A model generated the notes under the pieces. It made no database searches, was not told the DNA's origin, and worked only from the letters and a program-made list of their open reading frames with translations. A stretch of 34,864 nt of DNA from a virus (taxonomy: Duplodnaviria > Caudoviricetes): positions 1-34,864 of the IMG/VR virus record IMGVR_UViG_3300022309_000015; one strand, written 5' to 3'. Positions 1 to 34,864 of this stretch are shown in pieces. The translations under genes were made by a program, and so were the position numbers. Within the stretch, counting starts at the first letter, position 1; the number at the start of each line of letters is the position of its first letter.

Positions 1-1976
1 AGGTCCATATTGAATATGGCCCTCGCTGATCCCATTTCATTCAGTGTGGCCCCGATTGTTCGTGTGCGCGTGTACCCCGGCCTCCTCATCAGCTTGCGCC
101 CGGCTTTTTGAACCATCGACATGAACTCGTTGCGCGGCATGGCCTCCAGGTAAGCCTTCTTTTCAACCAGCCACTTCACCGGCCCCTGTTCTTCGATGGC
201 ACGATTAACACCGGCAAGCGCCTCATCTCTCGTATTAGCATGGTGTGGCCAGTATTCGTGCCCCTGTTTCTGCTCAACACCAAAGGCGCGGTCCTTTAGT
301 ATGAACCCCTCCTCAAGTTTCTTTGCCTGCTGGATGTCCTTGAACGTCTTGAGCAGGTCGGCGGCTTCCTTCTCGTTGGGGGAGAGCGCATTGAACGCAT
401 CCCGAAATGCAGCTTCGTTCTTTGCGTACTCGCCCGTCTTGACCATCTCATCCATGTGCGTTACGAGCGCGATGTTTTCAGCAATGCTCTGCTGCTTCAG
501 TTCGATGGCAGAAATCTCGCGCTGGATGCGAATGGAGTCACGATGAAGCCGCTTCACTTCACGGTCGAGGATTGCTTCCTCGCGGGTCTTGAAGTCCTTT
601 GTCAGAAGTCTTGCCGCCGCCTTGCCTTCCTTCGCAGCGTCAGCCGCAGCCCGGTTAAACGCCTTCTGGTTCGCACCGACCGCAGCACGGGCGCGCTCCT
701 TCTTTGTGGCGGTGTCGATAATCTCCTTGTTCGGGCGGATGTTCCACTTGTTGCCACGAAGCGTATTGGTCGTGCTGGCGTGGAGAGCGTTAGTGGCCTC
801 CTCATGCGCGGCCTTCAGCCCCGGAATCTTAGCGCGAAGATCAACCTCTTTCGCAGCAAAGCGGTCGATGTTCTTCTCTATCTTAGAGTACGCCTTCGCT
901 CTCTCTCTGCCCTTCGCGGCTTCAATCGCGCTGAGAATATCTGGGCTGCTCTCAACAGCGGAAATCTTGGCCTCTATCAACTCGGCCTTCTTCTTAAGCC
1001 TGGCGTGGCGATTGGTAAGGTCGTCAATGCTTGACTTGTACTTCTTGATGACCTTCTGTGGGTTGGCGATCCTGCGTACCGGAGCCTGATCTACAGTCAC
1101 ATAGATATGCTCCATGCGCTTCGGGTCGGGTACGAGTTCAACGGCACGCTTGGTGTACTCGGACTGCGGGATGTTAGCGATAGCATGTAGTTCCCCGGCG
1201 TGCTCTCTCTTGAGTTTGGCAAACCCCGGCACTCCCATCTTCTTCAAGTGGTATGCCTGATTGAACGCCTCGCCAATACGGCTACCAGCTTCCTTCAAGA
1301 ACTCTGCCGTTTCCCTCGTTGGCCGGGTAAGCCCCGCTATTTCATCGGCACCCTTGAACAACGCGGAAACCTCGCCGACAGCGAACTTGGTGGCGACCCT
1401 CGCCGGGATGTTAATGGGGAGCGACATAGATGTTGGGGCGAGAAGATCAAGGGGCTTTCCAACTTCATACGTCATCATTAGCGGTGTTCTGCCAGGAATG
1501 GGTATTGGGGGGACAACCCCCTTCATCCCCTGCATCGCCTCTGAATACTTCGTCTTGTCCTTCCATCCGCCAATAGCAGCCTTAGCGATTCCGATTGGGT
1601 CTGGTTTTTGCGGATTGGTGATGGCGTGCCCTATGAACGTCTGCCCTTCCTTGTCGGCCTGCGCCGCTGCTTCCTCAACCTTCGCACGCTCGTACTGGAT
1701 AATTCCAGCCGTAACCCCTTCGATATGATTAATCGCGTTCTCAATCTTTTGCAACCCACGCAACGCCTGCTTCTGAGAAAACTCCTGCCCCTTTCTGACT
1801 GCGCCAATACGGGGCTTGGGGTCAACCAGCTTGGCTTCTTCCTTTCGGATGAAGTCCTCAACCTGGGAACGCTTCTTACCACCCGTGTTGGTCTGACGGA
1901 TTTGCTGCTTAGTTCCCTCGGATTGTGCGCGCAACTCGTTCTGGATGCGCAGCAGTTCTTCGTCGCTGGTAGCCAT
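1..1976 (-). CDS. Large putative internal virion/DNA ejection protein (3' partial, about 658 aa within window)
   Basis: Absent from ORF track because it has no stop in the window. ATG at 1976 directly follows TAA of the upstream gene (MATSDEELLRIQNELRAQ...); open wherever checked down to base 1; helical, K/E/A-rich; position matches the last ejection protein. Confidence 0.75.
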   Translation of the reverse strand, partial: MATSDEELLRIQNELRAQSEGTKQQIRQTNTGGKKRSQVEDFIRKEEAKLVDPKPRIGAVRKGQEFSQKQALRGLQKIENAINHIEGVTAGIIQYERAKVEEAAAQADKEGQTFIGHAITNPQKPDPIGIAKAAIGGWKDKTKYSEAMQGMKGVVPPIPIPGRTPLMMTYEVGKPLDLLAPTSMSLPINIPARVATKFAVGEVSALFKGADEIAGLTRPTRETAEFLKEAGSRIGEAFNQAYHLKKMGVPGFAKLKREHAGELHAIANIPQSEYTKRAVELVPDPKRMEHIYVTVDQAPVRRIANPQKVIKKYKSSIDDLTNRHARLKKKAELIEAKISAVESSPDILSAIEAAKGRERAKAYSKIEKNIDRFAAKEVDLRAKIPGLKAAHEEATNALHASTTNTLRGNKWNIRPNKEIIDTATKKERARAAVGANQKAFNRAAADAAKEGKAAARLLTKDFKTREEAILDREVKRLHRDSIRIQREISAIELKQQSIAENIALVTHMDEMVKTGEYAKNEAAFRDAFNALSPNEKEAADLLKTFKDIQQAKKLEEGFILKDRAFGVEQKQGHEYWPHHANTRDEALAGVNRAIEEQGPVKWLVEKKAYLEAMPRNEFMSMVQKAGRKLMRRPGYTRTRTIGATLNEMGSARAIFNMD

Positions 1977-15676: not shown

Positions 15677-16684
15677 CTAGGTCGTGATAGAAGCGATGTC
15701 GAAGTCGTGAATCACGACATGACGGCTCGGGTCCCACGTAACAACGTTACCGGCCCAGAACAATTTATTGACGAGCGCAGCCTGGTCAATCGGCTCTTTC
15801 CACCCATCGACTCGGAAGTTTTCCTTTTCGTGGGTGATGAGGTCGAAGTAATCCAGGTTGAGCGCGTAGATGCGGTTGGTCGCTGGGACAGACGTGCTGT
15901 ACGCGATATGGTTATCCGCGACAAACGGAATACCATCCACATGCGCCATCTTGAAACCGGCGAGCAACTGTGCATACGGACCCTTTGCCCCGTCAGCGAT
16001 GTACCGCTGATTGGACTGCTGAGACTGCATGAACGTGTCGATGGTCGTGGAATAGGCCATCAGGAAGTTGGGAACCTTGTCCGCATCATGTGCCAGCGCG
16101 AGGCCGGACTTGATGTTGGAGTAGGTGGGACCGTGGTCGCCGCCCGTACCATCAAGGTCTTTGCAATTTCCAGCCCACCACGAATACGTGGACTTGCTGA
16201 TGCCACCATACGTGACACCGGCACCGAGCGAATCGGAAGCATCGTTTAGCGCGTGATCCAGTTCATTGATGACAAGAGACGAGTCCGTCCCGCCACCAGT
16301 GAAGAAATCATTCGCCAAATCCTGCTCGCCGCCGTACTTCATAACCATGACCTTCGCTTCCATGATGTCATGGACCTGCGAAGGACCGGCGTTCTCAAGC
16401 TGGTCCTGCCGGGTAATCATCGTAGGCCACATGTAGTAGCGATACGTCCACTCGGCAGCCGTGAAGTTTTCCTCGCCAGACAGGTCGAATACCTGCCCGC
16501 GACCGTAAGCCCCGCCCTTCGTGTACTGATAGGCGATAGACTTACGGATACTCGTTCCACCCTGGAGTTTGCTTCCCTTAGACAGCAACGCCTTCAGGAC
16601 CGGGACTTCCGATCCGAAGTTCGTTGTAATCCGGGGAAGATAAAGCTCCTGAGTAAGAGCGTTAAGTTCCGCGATTGAAGGCAT
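15677..16684 (-). CDS. Major capsid protein (335 aa)
   Basis: Follows scaffold; size and motifs (GGTSI, TYGGISKS.YSWW, DGIPFVAD, IYALNLDY, W.GNV...PSRH) typical of HK97-fold podovirus capsids; AGGAG SD. Confidence 0.85.
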   Translation of the reverse strand: MPSIAELNALTQELYLPRITTNFGSEVPVLKALLSKGSKLQGGTSIRKSIAYQYTKGGAYGRGQVFDLSGEENFTAAEWTYRYYMWPTMITRQDQLENAGPSQVHDIMEAKVMVMKYGGEQDLANDFFTGGGTDSSLVINELDHALNDASDSLGAGVTYGGISKSTYSWWAGNCKDLDGTGGDHGPTYSNIKSGLALAHDADKVPNFLMAYSTTIDTFMQSQQSNQRYIADGAKGPYAQLLAGFKMAHVDGIPFVADNHIAYSTSVPATNRIYALNLDYFDLITHEKENFRVDGWKEPIDQAALVNKLFWAGNVVTWDPSRHVVIHDFDIASITT

Positions 16685-25297: not shown

Positions 25298-25555
25298 GTG
25301 AAAATTACGAAGAGCATCGTGCTTGGTACAGCCGAGCGAATGCACGAGGATTGGGACTGGCCGTATACGGTTGTCAAGTGCCAGCATCGGCCCGGGTACA
25401 TGTGCATCCGCGACTACGACGCAAGGGGACCTGGGGGGGTGTACCCGCTGAACGGAACGTCTTATACGCTCCGAGAGGTATGGGCTCACCTTAACGGCGT
25501 GGCTGCTGCACTTGACCACGCCGCAAACAAGGCAGACAAGACCGACCACGACTAA
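25298..25555 (+). CDS. Early hypothetical protein (85 aa)
   Basis: AGGAGGTTAG before GTG. Confidence 0.75.
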   Translation: MKITKSIVLGTAERMHEDWDWPYTVVKCQHRPGYMCIRDYDARGPGGVYPLNGTSYTLREVWAHLNGVAAALDHAANKADKTDHD

Positions 25556-25657
25556 CACAACGGGCGGGCATTCGTGCCCGCCCGCCTGTCCGTGGGCATG
25601 TGCCCACGCTGACGAGGCCCACGGGCCGAAACAGGAAACACAAACGGAGGCTAGACA

Positions 25658-25867
25658 ATGGACAAACATGTCCAGATTTCAAGGGACCCCTTTGCGCGCC
25701 ATGACGTAGTGCGGCGCGTGGTCGATAAGCACGACCGCCGCGATTGTGATTGGTGCGGCCGCGAAGGTGCCAAGTATCAGTACGGTATTTGGCCCGATGA
25801 TGGGGGCCCGATGTACGAAAACAAAGTCTTTTGCTGCAAGGGCTGCCACGACAGCTACGGCGACTAA
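25658..25867 (+). CDS. Early zinc-finger-like protein (69 aa)
   Basis: GGAGGCTAG SD; CDWC...FCCKGC. Confidence 0.75.
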   Translation: MDKHVQISRDPFARHDVVRRVVDKHDRRDCDWCGREGAKYQYGIWPDDGGPMYENKVFCCKGCHDSYGD

Positions 25868-27816: not shown

Positions 27817-28185
27817 GAACGCAAACCAGGAGGTTAGAACCGTGGAAAAAAGACTCAAACAAAGGCTAAACCTTGCGCTACAAGTCACCATTAATGCGGT
27901 TGAATATTCCGAGGTAACACCGGGACAGGAAACCACACTTGCATATCTCCGCGATATGCTTGCCCGCAAGCGTTCGGACGACTTCGCCACCGCCCGCGCC
28001 GCCAACTCGCACGCGGAACTAGTCGCGGCGCTGGAGCAGTGCTTGACCGTGATAGAGTTTGAAGCGGCGGCGGCGGGGAAGCTCGAATCGGTCAAAGCAT
28101 CCCCCGGCTACATTGCCGCCCGCGCCGCACTCAACAAGGCAAAGGCCAACGACTAAGGAACGCAAACCAGGAGGTTAGAACCGTG
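27817..28185 (+). repeat. 28-bp direct repeat spanning RBS and start codon (27817-27844, 28158-28185)
   Basis: GAACGCAAACCAGGAGGTTAGAACCGTG, identical in both copies. Confidence 0.9.
27842..28156 (+). CDS. Hypothetical protein (104 aa)
   Basis: Repeat-borne RBS; ELVAALE...AARAALNKAKAND. Confidence 0.8.
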   Translation: MEKRLKQRLNLALQVTINAVEYSEVTPGQETTLAYLRDMLARKRSDDFATARAANSHAELVAALEQCLTVIEFEAAAAGKLESVKASPGYIAARAALNKAKAND

Positions 28186-28512
28186 CAACAGGAACATAAC
28201 GTTTGGCAAGAGTACGACGCAGCCGCAGAATGGTGCGCCCGTCGCGGTATCGCTGGTAAGCCGGGGGACCGGCTTCCGGAGTTGCTTTCCGTTGCCGCGT
28301 TGCGAGAGATTAACGCGGACCCGGACGCTTTCCAGCAGCGCGTGCGCGATTCTGCCTATGCTCTTGCTATGGCAGCGCTGGAGGATCTTGTGGAATGGCA
28401 AGACCCCGACACGCAAAACGACATGAAAACGGACCATCATCTCCGGGTAGAATATCAGCGCGCAACCGAAGCCGCCCGCGCCGCCATCGACAAGGCAAAG
28501 GCCAACGACTAA
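28183..28512 (+). CDS. Hypothetical protein (109 aa)
   Basis: Repeat-borne RBS; MAALE...AARAAIDKAKAND. Confidence 0.8.
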   Translation: MQQEHNVWQEYDAAAEWCARRGIAGKPGDRLPELLSVAALREINADPDAFQQRVRDSAYALAMAALEDLVEWQDPDTQNDMKTDHHLRVEYQRATEAARAAIDKAKAND

Positions 28513-28515
28513 GGC

Positions 28516-28839
28516 ATGGGCGAACAGCTTGACATATTTACCGGCAAGGTAGACCCGCGCGTGCCGTATGTCGCTGGTTCCGAAACGAGCAAGCGTGCCG
28601 CTGATGGTATCCGGCCCCAGGTCCAGCACGACCGGGGCCGGGTACTGGCCTATCTGCAAGCGTTCGGCCCTTGCACGGATCAGGAGCTACAGGACGCACT
28701 GGATCTTGACCCCAGCACGGAACGCCCGCGCCGAGTGGAACTGGTAACGGCGGGACTGGTCTACGACTCCGGGCGGACGCGGCCCACGAAAAGCGGACGG
28801 CCCGCCGTACTCTGGATCGCACGAAAGGAAAGGCCATGA
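28516..28839 (+). CDS. Winged helix-turn-helix DNA-binding protein
   Basis: GPCTDQELQDAL....STERPRRVELVTAGLVYDSGRTR.TKSGR.AVLW, typical phage wHTH. Confidence 0.75.
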   Translation: MGEQLDIFTGKVDPRVPYVAGSETSKRAADGIRPQVQHDRGRVLAYLQAFGPCTDQELQDALDLDPSTERPRRVELVTAGLVYDSGRTRPTKSGRPAVLWIARKERP

Positions 28840-29753: not shown

Positions 29754-29782
29754 TTGACAACATATCGGTACGTGGATACAGT
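29754..29782 (+). promoter_or_regulatory. Sigma70-type promoter
   Basis: TTGACA-N17-TACAGT; predicted +1 near 29789. Confidence 0.7.
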
Positions 29783-29789
29783 GAATGTG

Positions 29790-29997
29790 TGGGTGCGGCG
29801 GCGTGGAAGAACACGCCATCCCCTGCTTGTATCGTAGGCCCGTTGGGCCGGTGCTGACTGCGAACCGTCGCAAGGGTACTGGACGGACCAACGAGAAACC
29901 GCGAGTGCAGACGGATGCTATTAAGTGCTGGCAATTTAATTTGAAGTCGGTAAGTCCAGCCGAACCAGCCATGCGGTTAAGACATGGCCCGCACTCA
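29790..29997 (+). ncRNA. tRNA-like structured RNA 1 (~208 nt)
   Basis: TGGGTGCGG/CCGCACTCA closing stem; CG linker; GCGTG-GAAGAA-CACGC arm; GCCATG-N9-CATGGC arm adjacent to the 3' strand; starts at predicted TSS. Confidence 0.55.
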
Positions 29998-30020: not shown

Positions 30021-30833
30021 ATGAGCAACACTAAGATTTGGGATGCGCTTTCTACCCCGCCCGCATGGGCGCTCAAGGAAATCATGGGTGGACGGCTCAA
30101 GGGCATGACGGACGTTTCCCCGCTGTGGCGGGTACAGGCCATGACCGAACTGTTCGGCCCTTGTGGTATCGGCTGGAAGTGGGAGATTGTCCGGCTGTGG
30201 GTTGACGAAGGAGCGGACGCGCAACGGTTCGCTTTCGCGCACGTCAACCTGTTCACAAGCGCGGCGATGGGTGAGGGATGGTCCGCGCCGATCCCGGGCG
30301 TGGGCGGTTCCATGCTCGTTGAGAAGGAAACCAAAGGGCTGCACAGCAATGATGAGGCGTTCAAGATGGCCGTGACGGATGCACTCTCCACTGCCATGAA
30401 GATGCTCGGGGTTGCCGCGAAGGTATACGCCGGGCAGATGGACGGAGGAAAGTACGCGCAGGCAACGCCCGTACACACACCGACCCCGGCGCGCAAACTC
30501 CCGCCGCCCACACAGGACGAGAACAGCGAGCCGATCCCCGTCCACGTGACCAACGTGACGTGGGAAATGTTCACCCCGCACGGGAAAACCGAGCAGATGA
30601 AGCGGTACATCATCACGTTCGATGATGGGGCCACATACAAGATCATCAAGGAGGAGATGGCGACAATGGCCGCTCAAGCGAAGGTCCACAACCGCCCCGT
30701 GTTCTACTCCACCGAGCAGCGCGGGAAGTACACGAACCTGGTGGCGATGGAATACGCACCGGAACCCCTCGGCCAGACCGAGGAGCCGACCGACCTTCCA
30801 CCCGTACCGAACGACGACGATCTGCCGTTCTGA
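30021..30833 (+). CDS. Rad52/Rad22 (Sak-like) single-strand annealing protein
   Basis: GGRLKGMTDV.P.WR...MTELFGPCGIGW and DEAFKMAVTDALS...K.LG.AA.VY; C-terminal DDDLPF. Confidence 0.75.
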   Translation: MSNTKIWDALSTPPAWALKEIMGGRLKGMTDVSPLWRVQAMTELFGPCGIGWKWEIVRLWVDEGADAQRFAFAHVNLFTSAAMGEGWSAPIPGVGGSMLVEKETKGLHSNDEAFKMAVTDALSTAMKMLGVAAKVYAGQMDGGKYAQATPVHTPTPARKLPPPTQDENSEPIPVHVTNVTWEMFTPHGKTEQMKRYIITFDDGATYKIIKEEMATMAAQAKVHNRPVFYSTEQRGKYTNLVAMEYAPEPLGQTEEPTDLPPVPNDDDLPF

Positions 30834-30845
30834 AAGGAGTAGGCC

Positions 30846-31112
30846 ATGGGACTCGTAACCGACAGCAAGCTGGAAGAAGAACTGGCGTGGATGAGGAAAT
30901 TGATTAACACTACGCAGAGCATCAAAACCACATCGACGCAGCATGCAATGTCCAATATCTTTCCTTCTTACGCTTACGAGAAGGCAATCTCTGTCACCAC
31001 AAAGCAGGCAATCGAGGCCATCATTGACTACCTCGGGATAGAACTGCGCGTTGAGCCTGGCAAGACCGTGCCGGAAAAGGTCGTTGCCAGCAAGGCAAAG
31101 AAAAAGGAGTAG
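30846..31112 (+). CDS. Hypothetical protein (88 aa)
   Basis: AAAGGAG SD. Confidence 0.75.
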   Translation: MGLVTDSKLEEELAWMRKLINTTQSIKTTSTQHAMSNIFPSYAYEKAISVTTKQAIEAIIDYLGIELRVEPGKTVPEKVVASKAKKKE

Positions 31113-31415: not shown

Positions 31416-31600
31416 TGAAGGCAAGGGGCATCAGTATGGACAACGCGATGGTGGTCGCCGTCCGGCGCGCCGTGGCACGGTACAACGCGAACAACCAGCA
31501 GACACCGCTGAACGTATCGTCATACATCCGGCGTGCGGTGCAAGAGAAGCTGGAACGCGACGGCGAAGCCGTGGACGTGTGGCAGGTGGAAACCGACTAA
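31412..31600 (+). CDS. Ribbon-helix-helix-like DNA-binding protein (62 aa)
   Basis: ARGISMD strand and NVSSYIRRAVQEKL helix; ATGA coupling. Confidence 0.65.
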   Translation: MMKARGISMDNAMVVAVRRAVARYNANNQQTPLNVSSYIRRAVQEKLERDGEAVDVWQVETD

Positions 31601-31606
31601 TGACTA

Positions 31607-31737
31607 TCGCGCACGGCGGCGTGGAAGGACACGCAGCCCCAAACGATACCGGATGCAGTGATGTATTCCGCTACCAGTTTGGTACGCACGAGGCGAAAGC
31701 CGTAGAACAGCCGGTATCAATCCCGGCCCGTGCGCGA
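31607..31737 (+). ncRNA. tRNA-like structured RNA 2 (~131 nt)
   Basis: Perfect 10-bp TCGCGCACGG/CCGTGCGCGA stem; CG linker; GCGTG-GAAGGA-CACGC D-like arm; GCCGG-TATCAATC-CCGGC T-like arm. Confidence 0.6.
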
Positions 31738-31826
31738 GACTAAATGGGCGGGCTGGCCGGGGAAGGACGTATCGGGAAGTGCTGTGACCTGGCTGGCCCG
31801 TCCCGCAAACTTGAAAGGAGCAAGAC

Positions 31827-32237
31827 ATGTATGGAAGCATGAAGGAATGGCTGGACGGGTGGGATAGAACCGAGATTGGTTTATATGCCCTGCACAAAGA
31901 AATCGCCAGCCGCATCGACGCGATGGAAGATGATGGTAGACACTATCGGGCGTCCTTCAATGAGGTGTTCTCGCGCCTCCAAAAGCTGGAGCAGTTTTCA
32001 TCCAGCGTTATCAAGGTAGCGCCTAAGCCAGAGCCGCAGGGTGTCTACGTGCGCGAGGGGATGCAGGTGGAGACGAAGGAGGGGAATATATTTACCGTGC
32101 GGAAGAACCATCCTGTTGCTGGCTATGAAGATTGCATCGACGTGTGGCTTTCTAATGGTTCGCATGGGGTTATTCGCAAGGGTGAAATCACCTACGGAGG
32201 AAGGCCTGTTCTTGGATACGTGGAGGACCGGCCATGA
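31827..32237 (+). CDS. Hypothetical protein, paralog A (136 aa)
   Basis: AAAGGAG SD; shares blocks with the next gene. Confidence 0.75.
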   Translation: MYGSMKEWLDGWDRTEIGLYALHKEIASRIDAMEDDGRHYRASFNEVFSRLQKLEQFSSSVIKVAPKPEPQGVYVREGMQVETKEGNIFTVRKNHPVAGYEDCIDVWLSNGSHGVIRKGEITYGGRPVLGYVEDRP

Positions 32238-32620
32238 GCGAAAGCATGAAGGAATGGCTGGGCACGTGGCGCGCAGTACGTGACTACATAAATGAAACTT
32301 TCGACGGGCTCGCCCACCGCATCGACGCGCTGGAGGCACGGGTAAAGTTTCTCCCGTTCATATGCGGGAAATGCGGAGCACATCTCCAGTTCAATGGTGC
32401 GGAGTGTTTCTGCGGCAAGCCGCATGGTGTCTACGTGCGCGAGGGGATGCGGGTGACTGAAAAGGAAGAGGGGTCCCGATTTACTGTAAAAGCGCATTGG
32501 GGCCGATGCAGTGGGTGGATCTACGTATGGACCGATGATGGCGAGGTCGTGTGTATTCACAAGGATGAAATCACCTACAACGGAAAGCCAGTTCTTGGCT
32601 ACGAGGAGGACCGGCCATGA
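32234..32620 (+). CDS. Hypothetical protein, paralog B (128 aa)
   Basis: GGAGG SD; SMKEWL, RIDA, GVYVREGM and EITY.G.PVLGY.EDRP shared with paralog A. Confidence 0.75.
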   Translation: MSESMKEWLGTWRAVRDYINETFDGLAHRIDALEARVKFLPFICGKCGAHLQFNGAECFCGKPHGVYVREGMRVTEKEEGSRFTVKAHWGRCSGWIYVWTDDGEVVCIHKDEITYNGKPVLGYEEDRP

Positions 32621-32838
32621 AGCACTACTGGAGGGACGATTACACGCCACCCCCGATGTGGATTGTGCCAGCGGGGATAGCCAGGGTGCGGTGCGGGTTT
32701 TGCAGCACCGTCCGCGACGAACCGCTGGACGAACCCCTCGGCAAGTGCCCGGTGTGCGCGCAGTGGGACAACCATGAGCTGCGGCTGATGCTCAAGCACA
32801 CGCTCGGCTATCTGCCCGAAGTGAAGGAGAAGCCATGA
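32617..32838 (+). CDS. Small zinc-ribbon protein (73 aa)
   Basis: CGFC...CPVC; ATGA coupling. Confidence 0.7.
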   Translation: MKHYWRDDYTPPPMWIVPAGIARVRCGFCSTVRDEPLDEPLGKCPVCAQWDNHELRLMLKHTLGYLPEVKEKP

Positions 32839-33107
32839 AGCAAAAACCAAAGACACCCTATCAGCATCTACTGGAGGATGCGCGTAAGTGGGCGTTCGAG
32901 GTTGAGCACCCTCGCATGGCGCCCATGTTTCTCTACGATGCTAAAGCGATTGTCAATAGGGTAGGATTTCGTATGGACGATTTGCGGGAGCGCGTGCTGG
33001 CTGCTGACCAGTTGGGCTACGACGTGCGTGTGCGTGTGGACAATGACGGAAATCTTCGCGCCGAATATGTGAAGCGACCGTCTCTAGCGCCGTACAAGCT
33101 GAGATAG
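32835..33107 (+). CDS. Hypothetical protein (90 aa)
   Basis: AAGGAG SD; LRERVLAADQLGYDV. Confidence 0.75.
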   Translation: MKQKPKTPYQHLLEDARKWAFEVEHPRMAPMFLYDAKAIVNRVGFRMDDLRERVLAADQLGYDVRVRVDNDGNLRAEYVKRPSLAPYKLR

Positions 33108-33130
33108 GATATAAACCCGAAGGAGAAGCC

Positions 33131-33352
33131 ATGAAGATCATGCGTGACGGTAAGGAAGTGGACCCGGCGTTGTTCGGCGTGGTGGTGCCCTTGCAGAAGG
33201 GCAAGCGGCTGACCGATACCAGCGAGTGGCCGCCGATGGGAGAGGACGACATGCAGCGCAGCCGCGACATGGTGGGGCTGATGCTGGTAGTAATCGTGTT
33301 TGAAACCGGCATGCTTGTCGGGGCCATGCTTGTAGCACTGTTTGGAGGTTGA
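33131..33352 (+). CDS. Small membrane protein (73 aa)
   Basis: AAGGAG SD; C-terminal hydrophobic helix. Confidence 0.7.
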   Translation: MKIMRDGKEVDPALFGVVVPLQKGKRLTDTSEWPPMGEDDMQRSRDMVGLMLVVIVFETGMLVGAMLVALFGG

Positions 33353-33355
33353 GGT

Positions 33356-33670
33356 ATGAGCGCGAAGCTGTGCAAGGACTGCCGGTGGTATAAGGCGGAG
33401 TGGAAGTTCTCTAGGCCAGACTGCACGCACCATTTGCGCTCTCCTCGTCGCCTGGTCATGGCCATGGAAGCTGTGTATCTACCCCGCGTTCAGTTCGCCG
33501 CACATGACGACATGGTTGTTGATCCTCCGACACCATTTTACCGCACAGAGAAATGGCTTTCATGCGCCCATACGAGTCGGGATCGGTATGGTTCCTGCGG
33601 TCCTGAAGGCAAGTTGTGGGAACCGAGACGCACATTGTGGCGTCGGATGAAAGGATGGTGGATACGGTGA
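33356..33670 (+). CDS. Cys-containing hypothetical protein (104 aa)
   Basis: KLCKDCRWY...CGPEGKLWEP pattern; GGAGG/GAGG SD. Confidence 0.75.
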   Translation: MSAKLCKDCRWYKAEWKFSRPDCTHHLRSPRRLVMAMEAVYLPRVQFAAHDDMVVDPPTPFYRTEKWLSCAHTSRDRYGSCGPEGKLWEPRRTLWRRMKGWWIR

Positions 33671-33942
33671 AGCCGATAGTTTTCAAAGAGCGCACGGGCA
33701 CGCTTGGGAGGCCAGTTGGCATAACGGAAGAACAATGCGGGTCGCTATCAGTGCACCAGACAGGAGAGCAAGTGATTTCGTGTTGGCGCGCGTCGTGGCG
33801 CGAGCGCCTTTCCTTGCTGGTGTTCGGGAGGGTCTGGTTGTGGGTGTGGTCTGGCAACACGCAGCCGCCAGTCACGCTTGAAGCCACGCGCACGGTATTC
33901 TCTTCCCGACGCCCGTGGTGGCGTCGGCTGTTTGGAGGTTGA
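33667..33942 (+). CDS. Conserved phage hypothetical protein (91 aa)
   Basis: GTGA-coupled start; ISCW....RERL....GRVWLWV....QPPV motif. Confidence 0.7.
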   Translation: MKPIVFKERTGTLGRPVGITEEQCGSLSVHQTGEQVISCWRASWRERLSLLVFGRVWLWVWSGNTQPPVTLEATRTVFSSRRPWWRRLFGG

Positions 33943-33945
33943 GAC

Positions 33946-34209
33946 ATGAGCGAGAAACTTAAGCCGTTGACTACTAGTATTCAGGTTTCGTTGTGCAAGC
34001 ATCAGATGGCTACTTCGCGGTGTCCTGCATGTGCAGAGATTTCCAATGCCCGCCGCGAGGCGTTCGAGGAGTGCATTATGATTGCGGAGCCACAGCCCGG
34101 ACCAGAGCCTAGAGATTTTCAGGCATACCGAATACAAGTATCAACGCAAAGATGGATCGCTGATGCTCTCCGCGCCCGCCTAGCCGAACTGGAGAAGGAG
34201 AAGCCATGA
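33946..34209 (+). CDS. Hypothetical protein (87 aa)
   Basis: GGAGG SD; shares RREAFEECI and LRARLAELEKEKP with the next gene. Confidence 0.7.
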   Translation: MSEKLKPLTTSIQVSLCKHQMATSRCPACAEISNARREAFEECIMIAEPQPGPEPRDFQAYRIQVSTQRWIADALRARLAELEKEKP

Positions 34210-34526
34210 GTACGCAGGAAGAACGAGAACGGGCGCTGAAGGTAGTTCTAAATGATCTGGAGTGCAACATCGATGGTGTTCCCTCCAGTTACGACGACAC
34301 AATTAGAGCGCAGATGCGCGGGCATATCGAAACCCTCCGCGACCGCGTCCGTGAGGAGCATGAGCGGATGGAACGTAAAGTCCGCCGCGAGGCGTTCGAG
34401 GAGTGTATCAGGATTGCGGAGACAACTCCGCTGGTACAGTTGTCACCTTTGGCAGACCGGCAGCAGGCCGCGATTACCTCCAACCTCCGCGCCCGCCTAG
34501 CCGAACTTGAGAAGGAGAAGCCATGA
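34206..34526 (+). CDS. Hypothetical protein (106 aa)
   Basis: AAGGAG SD; ATGA coupling. Confidence 0.75.
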   Translation: MSTQEERERALKVVLNDLECNIDGVPSSYDDTIRAQMRGHIETLRDRVREEHERMERKVRREAFEECIRIAETTPLVQLSPLADRQQAAITSNLRARLAELEKEKP

Positions 34527-34762
34527 GCGACGACGTTGAATATTTCCGCACCTATATGATGATGAGGGTGGAGCGCGAGCGTGCCTATGCCGAGTACCTC
34601 CAAGCGTCAACATCGTTGGAGTTGGCGTGGGTGCATGAGCGAGCGGCTGAGTTGGCGAGCCAGAGCGAGCCGCTTGAGACGGCGTGCGGACTGATGGATA
34701 AGCGCGCCCTCGCCATAGCGGCAGCCAAATACGTCGCATTCGGGAAAAAGATACAACCCTGA
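34523..34762 (+). CDS. Hypothetical protein (79 aa)
   Basis: AAGGAG SD; ATGA coupling. Confidence 0.7.
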   Translation: MSDDVEYFRTYMMMRVERERAYAEYLQASTSLELAWVHERAAELASQSEPLETACGLMDKRALAIAAAKYVAFGKKIQP

Positions 34763-34772
34763 AGGAGAAGCC

Positions 34773-34864
34773 ATGAAGTACGCAATGCTTGCCGCAGTTT
34801 TCGTGATGCTGATTGCCCCGGTGCGTTTTGTCGGGTTTCCAGATCTGGAACCGCGCACGTCGCC
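34773..34864 (+). CDS. Partial CDS with signal-peptide-like N-terminus
   Basis: AAGGAG SD; MKYAMLAAVFVMLIAP...; runs off the window. Confidence 0.6.
   Translation, partial: MKYAMLAAVFVMLIAPVRFVGFPDLEPRTS

Follow-up and report, generated by a model that had tools for sequence, protein, structure and literature searches.

The element at positions 31607-31737 of the window (the whole stretch of 34,864 nucleotides analysed here, a 34.9-kb tailed-phage record) is real, and it belongs to a widespread family of phage RNAs that is absent from Rfam and whose frame recurs in hundreds of phages. The family adds an uncatalogued variant to a class of phage RNA that is known but unexplained. For about fifty years phages T4 and T5 have been known to carry stable, tRNA-like RNAs without an assigned role, and the family makes of these isolated cases a broad comparative collection in which the frame is constant and the insert varies. 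Judged from sequence comparison, the middle of the element is an exchangeable insert within a frame conserved across these hundreds of phages.

Structure and setting of the element

The tRNA-like topology proposed in a preliminary description of this DNA (a 10-bp stem, a 2-nt linker, a D-like arm and a stacked T-like arm) is present at 31607-31737 (Table 1). The closing stem (31607-31616/31728-31737) consists of 10 bp, all Watson-Crick, with pair probabilities of 0.65-1.0; the D-like arm (31619-31634) has 5 bp (probability 0.99), and the T-like arm (31710-31727; 0.98-0.99) stacks immediately on the closing stem's 3' strand. The folding energy of the element is -58.2 kcal/mol, against -44.0 ± 3.5 kcal/mol for shuffled sequences (z = -4.04), and none of 200 shuffles equalled it. 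The same description had noted that both an anticodon arm and an encoded CCA were missing, which was borne out for 31607-31737. Of the small hairpins that it had drawn in the middle, those with the GUGA and GAAA loops were recovered, whereas the TACCA-GTT-TGGTA hairpin has a pair probability of about 0.03. The middle (31635-31709) forms a single long, irregular hairpin with a GUGA cap and a 3-bp hairpin with a GAAA loop, and the TACCA and TGGTA bases pair instead with the start of the middle (six pairs, probability 0.96-0.97). The minus strand of the element folds comparably (-60.5 versus -58.2 kcal/mol), and thus the orientation was assigned from the loop motifs and from the co-orientation with genes and tRNAs. 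ARAGORN found no genes in the window, in line with the expected absence of a tRNA call, and Rfam, YrlA and tmRNA included, gave no hit at E ≤ 5 on the element.

Table 1. Positions of the element, its neighbours, the second copy and examples of the sister frame (window coordinates unless another record is named).
Feature	Position	Strand	Remark
Closing (acceptor-like) stem, 5' strand	31607..31616	+	last base is G7 of the family
CG linker and D-like arm	31617..31634	+	5-bp stem, loop GAAGGA, GG at tRNA positions 18-19; all 5 pairs with double-sided changes in the family
Variable insert, 75 nt	31635..31709	+	long GUGA-capped irregular hairpin and a GAAA hairpin of 3 bp; the A preceding the T stem is conserved
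T-like arm	31710..31727	+	5-bp stem, 8-nt loop ending UCAAUC
Closing stem, 3' strand	31728..31737	+	no CCA after it
Upstream small gene, 62 aa	31412..31600	+	terminates 6 nt before the element; longer ORF is a weak PHROG 19714 match
Downstream gene, 136 aa	31827..32237	+	without family match
PHROG 7838 'exonuclease' gene	30021..30833	+	next after the second copy
GC-rich hairpin without U tract	31746..31804	+	between element and next ribosome-binding site; not among predicted terminators
Direct repeat, 6 bp, left copy	31595..31600	+	ends the upstream gene
Direct repeat, 6 bp, right copy	31738..31743	+	
Sigma70-type promoter-like site, 10/12	29754..29782	+	just upstream of the second copy; consensus match only
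Second family member	29790..29997	+	9-bp closing stem, D loop GAAGAA, 152-nt insert, divergent 6-bp T arm with 9-nt loop
Sister frame, L014	~1596-1715	+	
Sister frame, HK620	16099-16182		
Sister frame, mEp460	30984-31108		

The minus strand of the window carries the terminase, portal, capsid and tail genes, and the plus strand a run of small early genes, within which the element sits 6 nt past a 62-aa gene and about 90 nt ahead of the next gene. A second copy, to which the preliminary description had alluded, is real (29790-29997). It shares a 20-nt D-arm motif with the element (two matches versus 0.02 expected), folds at z = -2.07, and lies between the Gp157 gene and a probable recombinase gene, directly preceded by one of the promoter-like sites of the window (12 found versus 5.0 expected). 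The gene that follows it, the PHROG 7838 match, is likely a single-strand annealing recombinase, judging from the known synteny in which such a gene comes after a Gp157 gene. A loose end in metagenome run X2 represents an allele of the second copy in which the same 3' strand is joined to a T arm of the kind usual in the family. A GUAAGUC loop-like motif near 29950, in the insert of the second copy, occurs in 7 of 192 inserts of the family (0.6 expected) and also in T4 rnaD and T5 RNA2.

Gene gain and loss are concentrated in the early arm of the window. Small paralogous genes and recurring gene-start cassettes (families D1, D3-D5, D8, D11, D14 and D16) were found at 31826-32620, 27817-28518 and 32822-34778, and are typical of exchange at gene boundaries. 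At 31600, beside the element, relatives in runs X2-X4 bear other sequence, apparently another small gene, and a contig of run X5 lacks the gene at 30846-31112 (window region 30832-31103). A type III hammerhead-like sequence was also recognized at 25583-25637 on the plus strand, in an intergenic gap of the early region with a gene start about 20 nt further on; its score (39.6 bits, E = 2.4 × 10-5) is under the gathering score of 48.5.

A widespread family with a covarying frame

By estimate, a 19-nt D-arm pattern occurs in about 490 stored IMG/VR stretches, a T-arm pattern in about 560, and a looser D-arm pattern in about 530 stretches of bacterial genomes, the genome hits spanning Proteobacteria, Acidobacteria, Planctomycetes, Chloroflexi and others. 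Among the matches listed, the frame was complete in 102 of 120 D-arm loci and 93 of 120 T-arm loci (unselected checks for a full T arm and closing stem) and in 38 of 120 genome loci with the looser D arm. Within 400 pattern-selected sources, 204 distinct members were parsed among the matches listed, and none in shuffled copies. The parser required a paired D stem, a paired T stem and six of seven acceptor pairs including G7-C66, and allowed any insert of at least 15 nt, so that the rates of those pairings are selected, as is the G7-C66 pair found in 204 of 204 members. In 199 members an A precedes the T stem, a feature that the parser favoured slightly in its score, and 156 have the D stem GCGUG/CACGC (partly fixed by the search patterns). 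The closing stem commonly exceeds 7 bp: pair 8, for which the parser had no requirement, is formed in 81% of the members (versus 41%) and pair 9 in 64%.

Covariation was found in 18 of the 19 frame pairs. In 80 of the 94 representatives with inserts of 55-95 nt, double-sided changes occupied 358 cells versus 94.6 in shuffled alignments, a value reached by none of 500 shuffles, and slid-pairing controls were at most 42% paired. RNAalifold recovered the same 19 pairs and none within the middle. A covariance model (R1; E-values rough), built without the window sequences, gave 76.7 bits for the element and 33.5 bits (E = 5 × 10-5) for the second copy. A search of phage genomes with this model revealed members in five cultured phages, DMCA, AP1, phiKX1, Pan3 and QDWS595 (49-79 bits), whose hosts include Caulobacter (DMCA; member at about 25552-25688 of PQ480021), Komagataeibacter (phiKX1) and Pseudanabaena (Pan3), all of them harmless. 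Five whole records that were searched contain one or two full members apiece.

Rfam gave no hit on the element in 20 D-arm loci or in 20 further loci. BLAST of the element against 50,697 phage records returned arm matches of 20-25 nt only, and BLAST with a typical member found none in E. coli genomes and nothing convincing in plasmids. We found no description of the frame family in the literature, in a comparison that the alignments of Fremin 2023 and the subscription papers on T5 RNAs lie outside. Fremin 2023 (PMC10690425) reports 10,006 candidates, and its passages and four table and text supplements, which hold no alignments, contained no motif match; the frame or single inserts may be among those candidates.

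The view that this is a non-decoding, tRNA-shaped RNA is supported for the whole family. Features of canonical tRNAs are present (a 7-bp acceptor stacked on a 5-bp T stem, and GG in the D loop), together with a T loop of 8-9 nt. A canonical anticodon stem-loop (5-bp stem, 7-nt loop) was found at the canonical place in none of 192 representatives and anywhere in eight, versus 4.0 in shuffled sequences. Encoded CCA was not enriched (8 of 204 members at the canonical offset versus 4-9 at other offsets), and with introns allowed ARAGORN made one doubtful call that overlapped a member, among 192.

A tRNA lies outside the element at 25 of the 192 loci; all 43 such tRNAs are on the same strand, and 13 are within 4-31 nt. 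At recombinase-homologue loci, tRNA proximity was 0 of 80, a weak control because these loci are largely redundant. In three members (L117, L202 and L237) a tRNA, whole or broken, sits in the insert and is thereby nested within the frame. For two members (L481, 1071-2632, in phage DMCA, and L143) the close upstream neighbour is a gene of about 400-440 aa annotated as a transposase, a placement that is not general. In phage PHB04 (L482, ~1700-2040), a region resembling a two-piece tmRNA by eye is followed by a minimal frame, which has the closing stem and the T arm and no D arm or insert.

Exchangeable inserts and their possible function

The inserts are 41-280 nt long and fall into 192 groups among the 204 members; none in the parsed set is shorter than 41 nt, though 15 nt was allowed. 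Loci L149 and L222 have flanks that are 97-98% identical and the same frame, and unrelated inserts of 70 and 51 nt; the L222 insert was found again in other frames, with different stems. The inserts have no common motif beyond weak k-mer excesses, and a pattern written for one insert sub-family gave seven matches, all by chance. Across the family the inserts are weakly folded (mean z = -0.38; 26% below -1), and the frame fold is within 0.5 kcal/mol of the free minimum in 84 of 192 representatives. Within sub-families, 11 insert pairs changed on both sides (2.8 expected) and 11 were broken (35.3 expected), in a test of 12 pairwise comparisons from nine sub-families chosen by similarity, in which the first sequence alone supplied the structure. 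Because pairs change on both sides more, and break less, than expected, the inserts keep their own folds within sub-families.

At the locus of the element, metagenome contigs have flanks that are 99% alike. Contigs of runs X2 (16.8x) and X3 (2.2x) retain 30 letters of each arm while bypassing the insert of the window (31635-31709), the window's own allele is also present in X2 (10.4x), and an X2 contig (8.3x) with an empty allele joins 31594 to 31738 across the 6-bp direct repeat. These alternative alleles are known from contig joints, without the letters between, and short-sided joints may stem from other organisms; we trust the joints, which would represent alleles of this locus in two studies, because the shared letters include the locus-specific stem. 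A conserved frame with inserts that differ between near-identical relatives is likely to be a stable carrier for exchangeable small RNA modules. With natural alleles at one locus (insert A, insert B and empty) and members in cultured phages, frame and insert are testable apart.

We tentatively read the element as a tRNA-framed small-RNA cassette, in which the frame would stabilise an exchangeable insert and the insert would probably be a protein-binding effector; as a model, we give this somewhat less than an even chance. Together the closing stem, D arm and T arm are predicted to adopt the shape of a tRNA's elbow and upper half. This frame would likely protect the RNA, fix its ends and present a short folded insert, and the insert is probably what acts, most plausibly by binding a host protein as its ligand or decoy. 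The element would be transcribed with the early operon, and either a promoter or RNase P may place its 5' end at the stem. Inserts may be swapped by recombination between the near-invariant arms, with host selection possibly driving their diversity. Promoter-like sites just upstream of members are not enriched (7 of 165, versus 6, 4 and 2 in control windows), and four of the seven end exactly 12 nt before G7. A closing stem that usually runs past 7 bp, with CCA not encoded, is a poor fit to classical RNase P/CCA maturation.

The D and T loops may also dock. Combinations at D19-T56 are G-C in 192 members, G-U in seven, A-C in three and A-U in two (Fisher p = 0.016, in pattern-biased sets). A scan with an A19 pattern gave 15 loci, mostly chance, with three true members that all keep C56, and a U56 scan gave 24 loci, about ten with a clear D arm and one with A19. 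Support for docking is thin in the family and clear in the sister frame described below.

If the inserts are effectors, the cassettes would represent a new route of phage-host conflict via modular RNA, and would parallel in nature the tRNA scaffolds that have been engineered. A further step, which we consider unlikely, would be a natural tRNA-scaffold library of a few hundred interchangeable aptamers, recombined through the arms, each neutralising a different host protein of defence or RNA surveillance; RNA inserts would then vary between strains as anti-defence proteins do.

Several observations count against the cassette reading: the inserts fold weakly on average, the frame fold is close to the free minimum in 84 of 192 representatives only, no partner gene co-occurs, and the frame sequence is conserved beyond the needs of a mere carrier. 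A serious, though not very likely, alternative is that the frame itself is the effector, an elbow or top-half tRNA mimic that binds and diverts a host protein recognising the shape of tRNAs (a nuclease or sensor of defence, a modification enzyme or a translation-surveillance factor), with the insert as folded filler. The D and T arms are near-invariant across phages of many hosts (the D stem being partly fixed by the pattern), the lack of a common insert motif would suit a filler, and the relative in PHB04 does without both D arm and insert. However, compensatory changes maintain insert folds within sub-families, inserts are exchanged as whole modules, and the parsed inserts stop well above the allowed minimum length. 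The decoy for tRNA-targeting nucleases suggested in the preliminary description would be weak for anticodon nucleases in particular, because the RNA presents no anticodon loop to cut.

It is distinctly unlikely that the element is a cis-acting processing, stability or antitermination signal, through which RNase P/Z or a polymerase-bound factor would alter expression of the flanking genes. Both window copies do lie in intergenic gaps of the early operon, one of them right after a promoter-like site, neighbours are mostly co-oriented (79 of 117 and 84 of 117, by rough ORF calling), and starts led by a ribosome-binding site are concentrated 22-35 nt past some members (37 of 147 have one less than 70 nt away, versus 28 in the control window). 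However, the neighbours are unrelated between loci, with no partner gene recurring in a PHROG scan of 86 upstream and 93 downstream ORFs at 117 loci, and members stand between tRNAs or, as in DMCA and Pan3, face convergent genes. Homologous Gp157-to-next-gene junctions are without the element (0 of 80 by the D-arm parser, 0 of 15 by the model), and at the present locus an element-less allele exists. The processing signal proposed earlier is possible but not general, because two cultured members have no same-strand gene next downstream.

A C4/CI-type antisense regulator, in which the insert would pair with leader sites of the phage itself and insert diversity would set immunity specificity, is very unlikely. 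Hypervariable inserts would suit such specificity, and passages of PMC5499578 describe C4 (P1/P7) and CI (P4) as small phage RNAs that RNase P cuts from early transcripts. However, the C4 and CI RNAs have no T loop in those passages (PMC5499578), and Rfam gave no C4 hit on the elements in the window and the D-arm loci. The longest complementary runs between insert and flank equal those of controls (144 loci at 250 nt, 90 at 1200 nt), and for both window inserts the best match in the whole window was 10-11 nt, versus shuffle means of 10.3-10.9 (contiguous pairing only).

Least probable is a selfish, tRNA-derived mobile element of SINE- or MITE-like kind that would spread through phage genomes, tolerated since it would be cut out of transcripts. 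The empty allele at this locus, cleanly delimited by a direct repeat of 6 bp, the scattered gene contexts and ends that form inverted repeats of up to 24 bp would fit it. Against it, flanking direct repeats of at least 6 nt are no more frequent (15.2% of 184) than in controls (16.3% and 13.6%), the inverted ends lack a conserved sequence, the 179 neighbour ORFs scanned show no recurrent mobilising enzyme, and members occupy tandem places in tRNA arrays. Target-site duplications of the SINE/MITE kind are not family-wide, the repeat with an empty allele being seen at this locus only.

Relation to known RNAs and the sister frame

The closest precedent is T5 RNA2 (AY543070, 32959-33083), annotated as 'tRNA-like stable RNA with unknown functions', a structural cousin rather than a demonstrated homologue. 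Like the family, it has a closing stem (8 bp) ending in G7, a CG linker, a 5-bp D stem with a GAU...GGA-like loop, a long insert in place of the anticodon arm, an A before a GCAGG T stem, no encoded CCA, and a position in a tRNA cluster. It was the sole R1 hit in the 9-kb T5 tRNA region, aligned over its full length (13.8 bits; E = 0.47, with rough E-values). However, its D loop has 8 nt (6-7 in the family) and its T loop is a canonical one of 7 nt (8-9 in the family). T5 RNA3 lacks a D arm of this kind, though its T-like loop has 8 nt. In T4, the species 1 and 2 RNAs are stable non-decoding RNAs of a phage tRNA cluster whose role is given as unknown in passages of PMC3014915 and PMC9697503. 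T4 rnaC, like the family, ends in a T arm plus stem, whereas both rnaC and rnaD have no matching D arm and a canonical T loop, and neither was hit by R1 at E ≤ 10.

The Y-RNA-like scaffold also suggested in the preliminary description fails on topology. YrlA, according to passages of PMC4201824, carries a non-decoding tRNA-like module with D and T arms in the permuted order T-acceptor-D and a looped acceptor, whereas the order in the element is acceptor-D-insert-T-acceptor; Rfam YrlA (Y RNA, RF02553) hit no element in the window or in the 40 family loci scanned. The YrlA module is closed by a stem that binds Ro60 and has a Ro60 gene beside it. No Ro60/TROVE gene was found near the element (27 window ORFs searched with Pfam and 56 with PHROGs) or among neighbours in the family, which were searched with PHROGs only. 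tmRNA was rejected as an identity on the lack of an ARAGORN or Rfam call, the covarying 5-bp D stem, and the absence of a frame bias in insert length (55/77/60 by length modulo 3). The tRNA-Sec and allo-tRNAs, as described in parts of PMC7609411 and PMC5389517, resemble the family in their long D stem and long acceptor and, in some allo-tRNAs, extra arms, but they have an anticodon arm, 8/4 or 9/3 branches and a D tetraloop, whereas the family has a 5-bp T stem, a 6-nt D loop and no anticodon arm.

A sister frame occurs beside family members at 6 of 192 loci. From 121 loci, 74 distinct members were obtained in 68 insert groups, with 47 pattern hits unparsed; their D and T loops are complementary, with matched variants. 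Arms of the sister frame match about 2100 IMG/VR stretches and 232 cultured-phage records. In HK620 it sits in the pR'-tQ leader. Rfam gave no hit on the frame in 40 sister-frame loci, and isrJ/isrK was rejected as an identity, the weak Rfam scores being terminator matches. In mEp460, the primers given in PMC7719688 for sRNA-17 of E. coli K1 RS218, a 193-nt prophage RNA verified there by RACE and Northern blotting, map to the sister frame, with the start at the stem edge and the end at the terminator; the text examined of that paper does not describe a tRNA-like frame. On this mapping, sRNA-17 is a prophage RNA that resembles the family in having a closing stem, a 5-bp D arm, an unrelated insert and a 5-bp T arm, but differs in its linker, in its loops (complementary D and T loops) and in a 3' trailer that runs to the terminator. 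Its ends, at the stem edge and the terminator, support discrete expression and argue against obligatory trimming to CCA.
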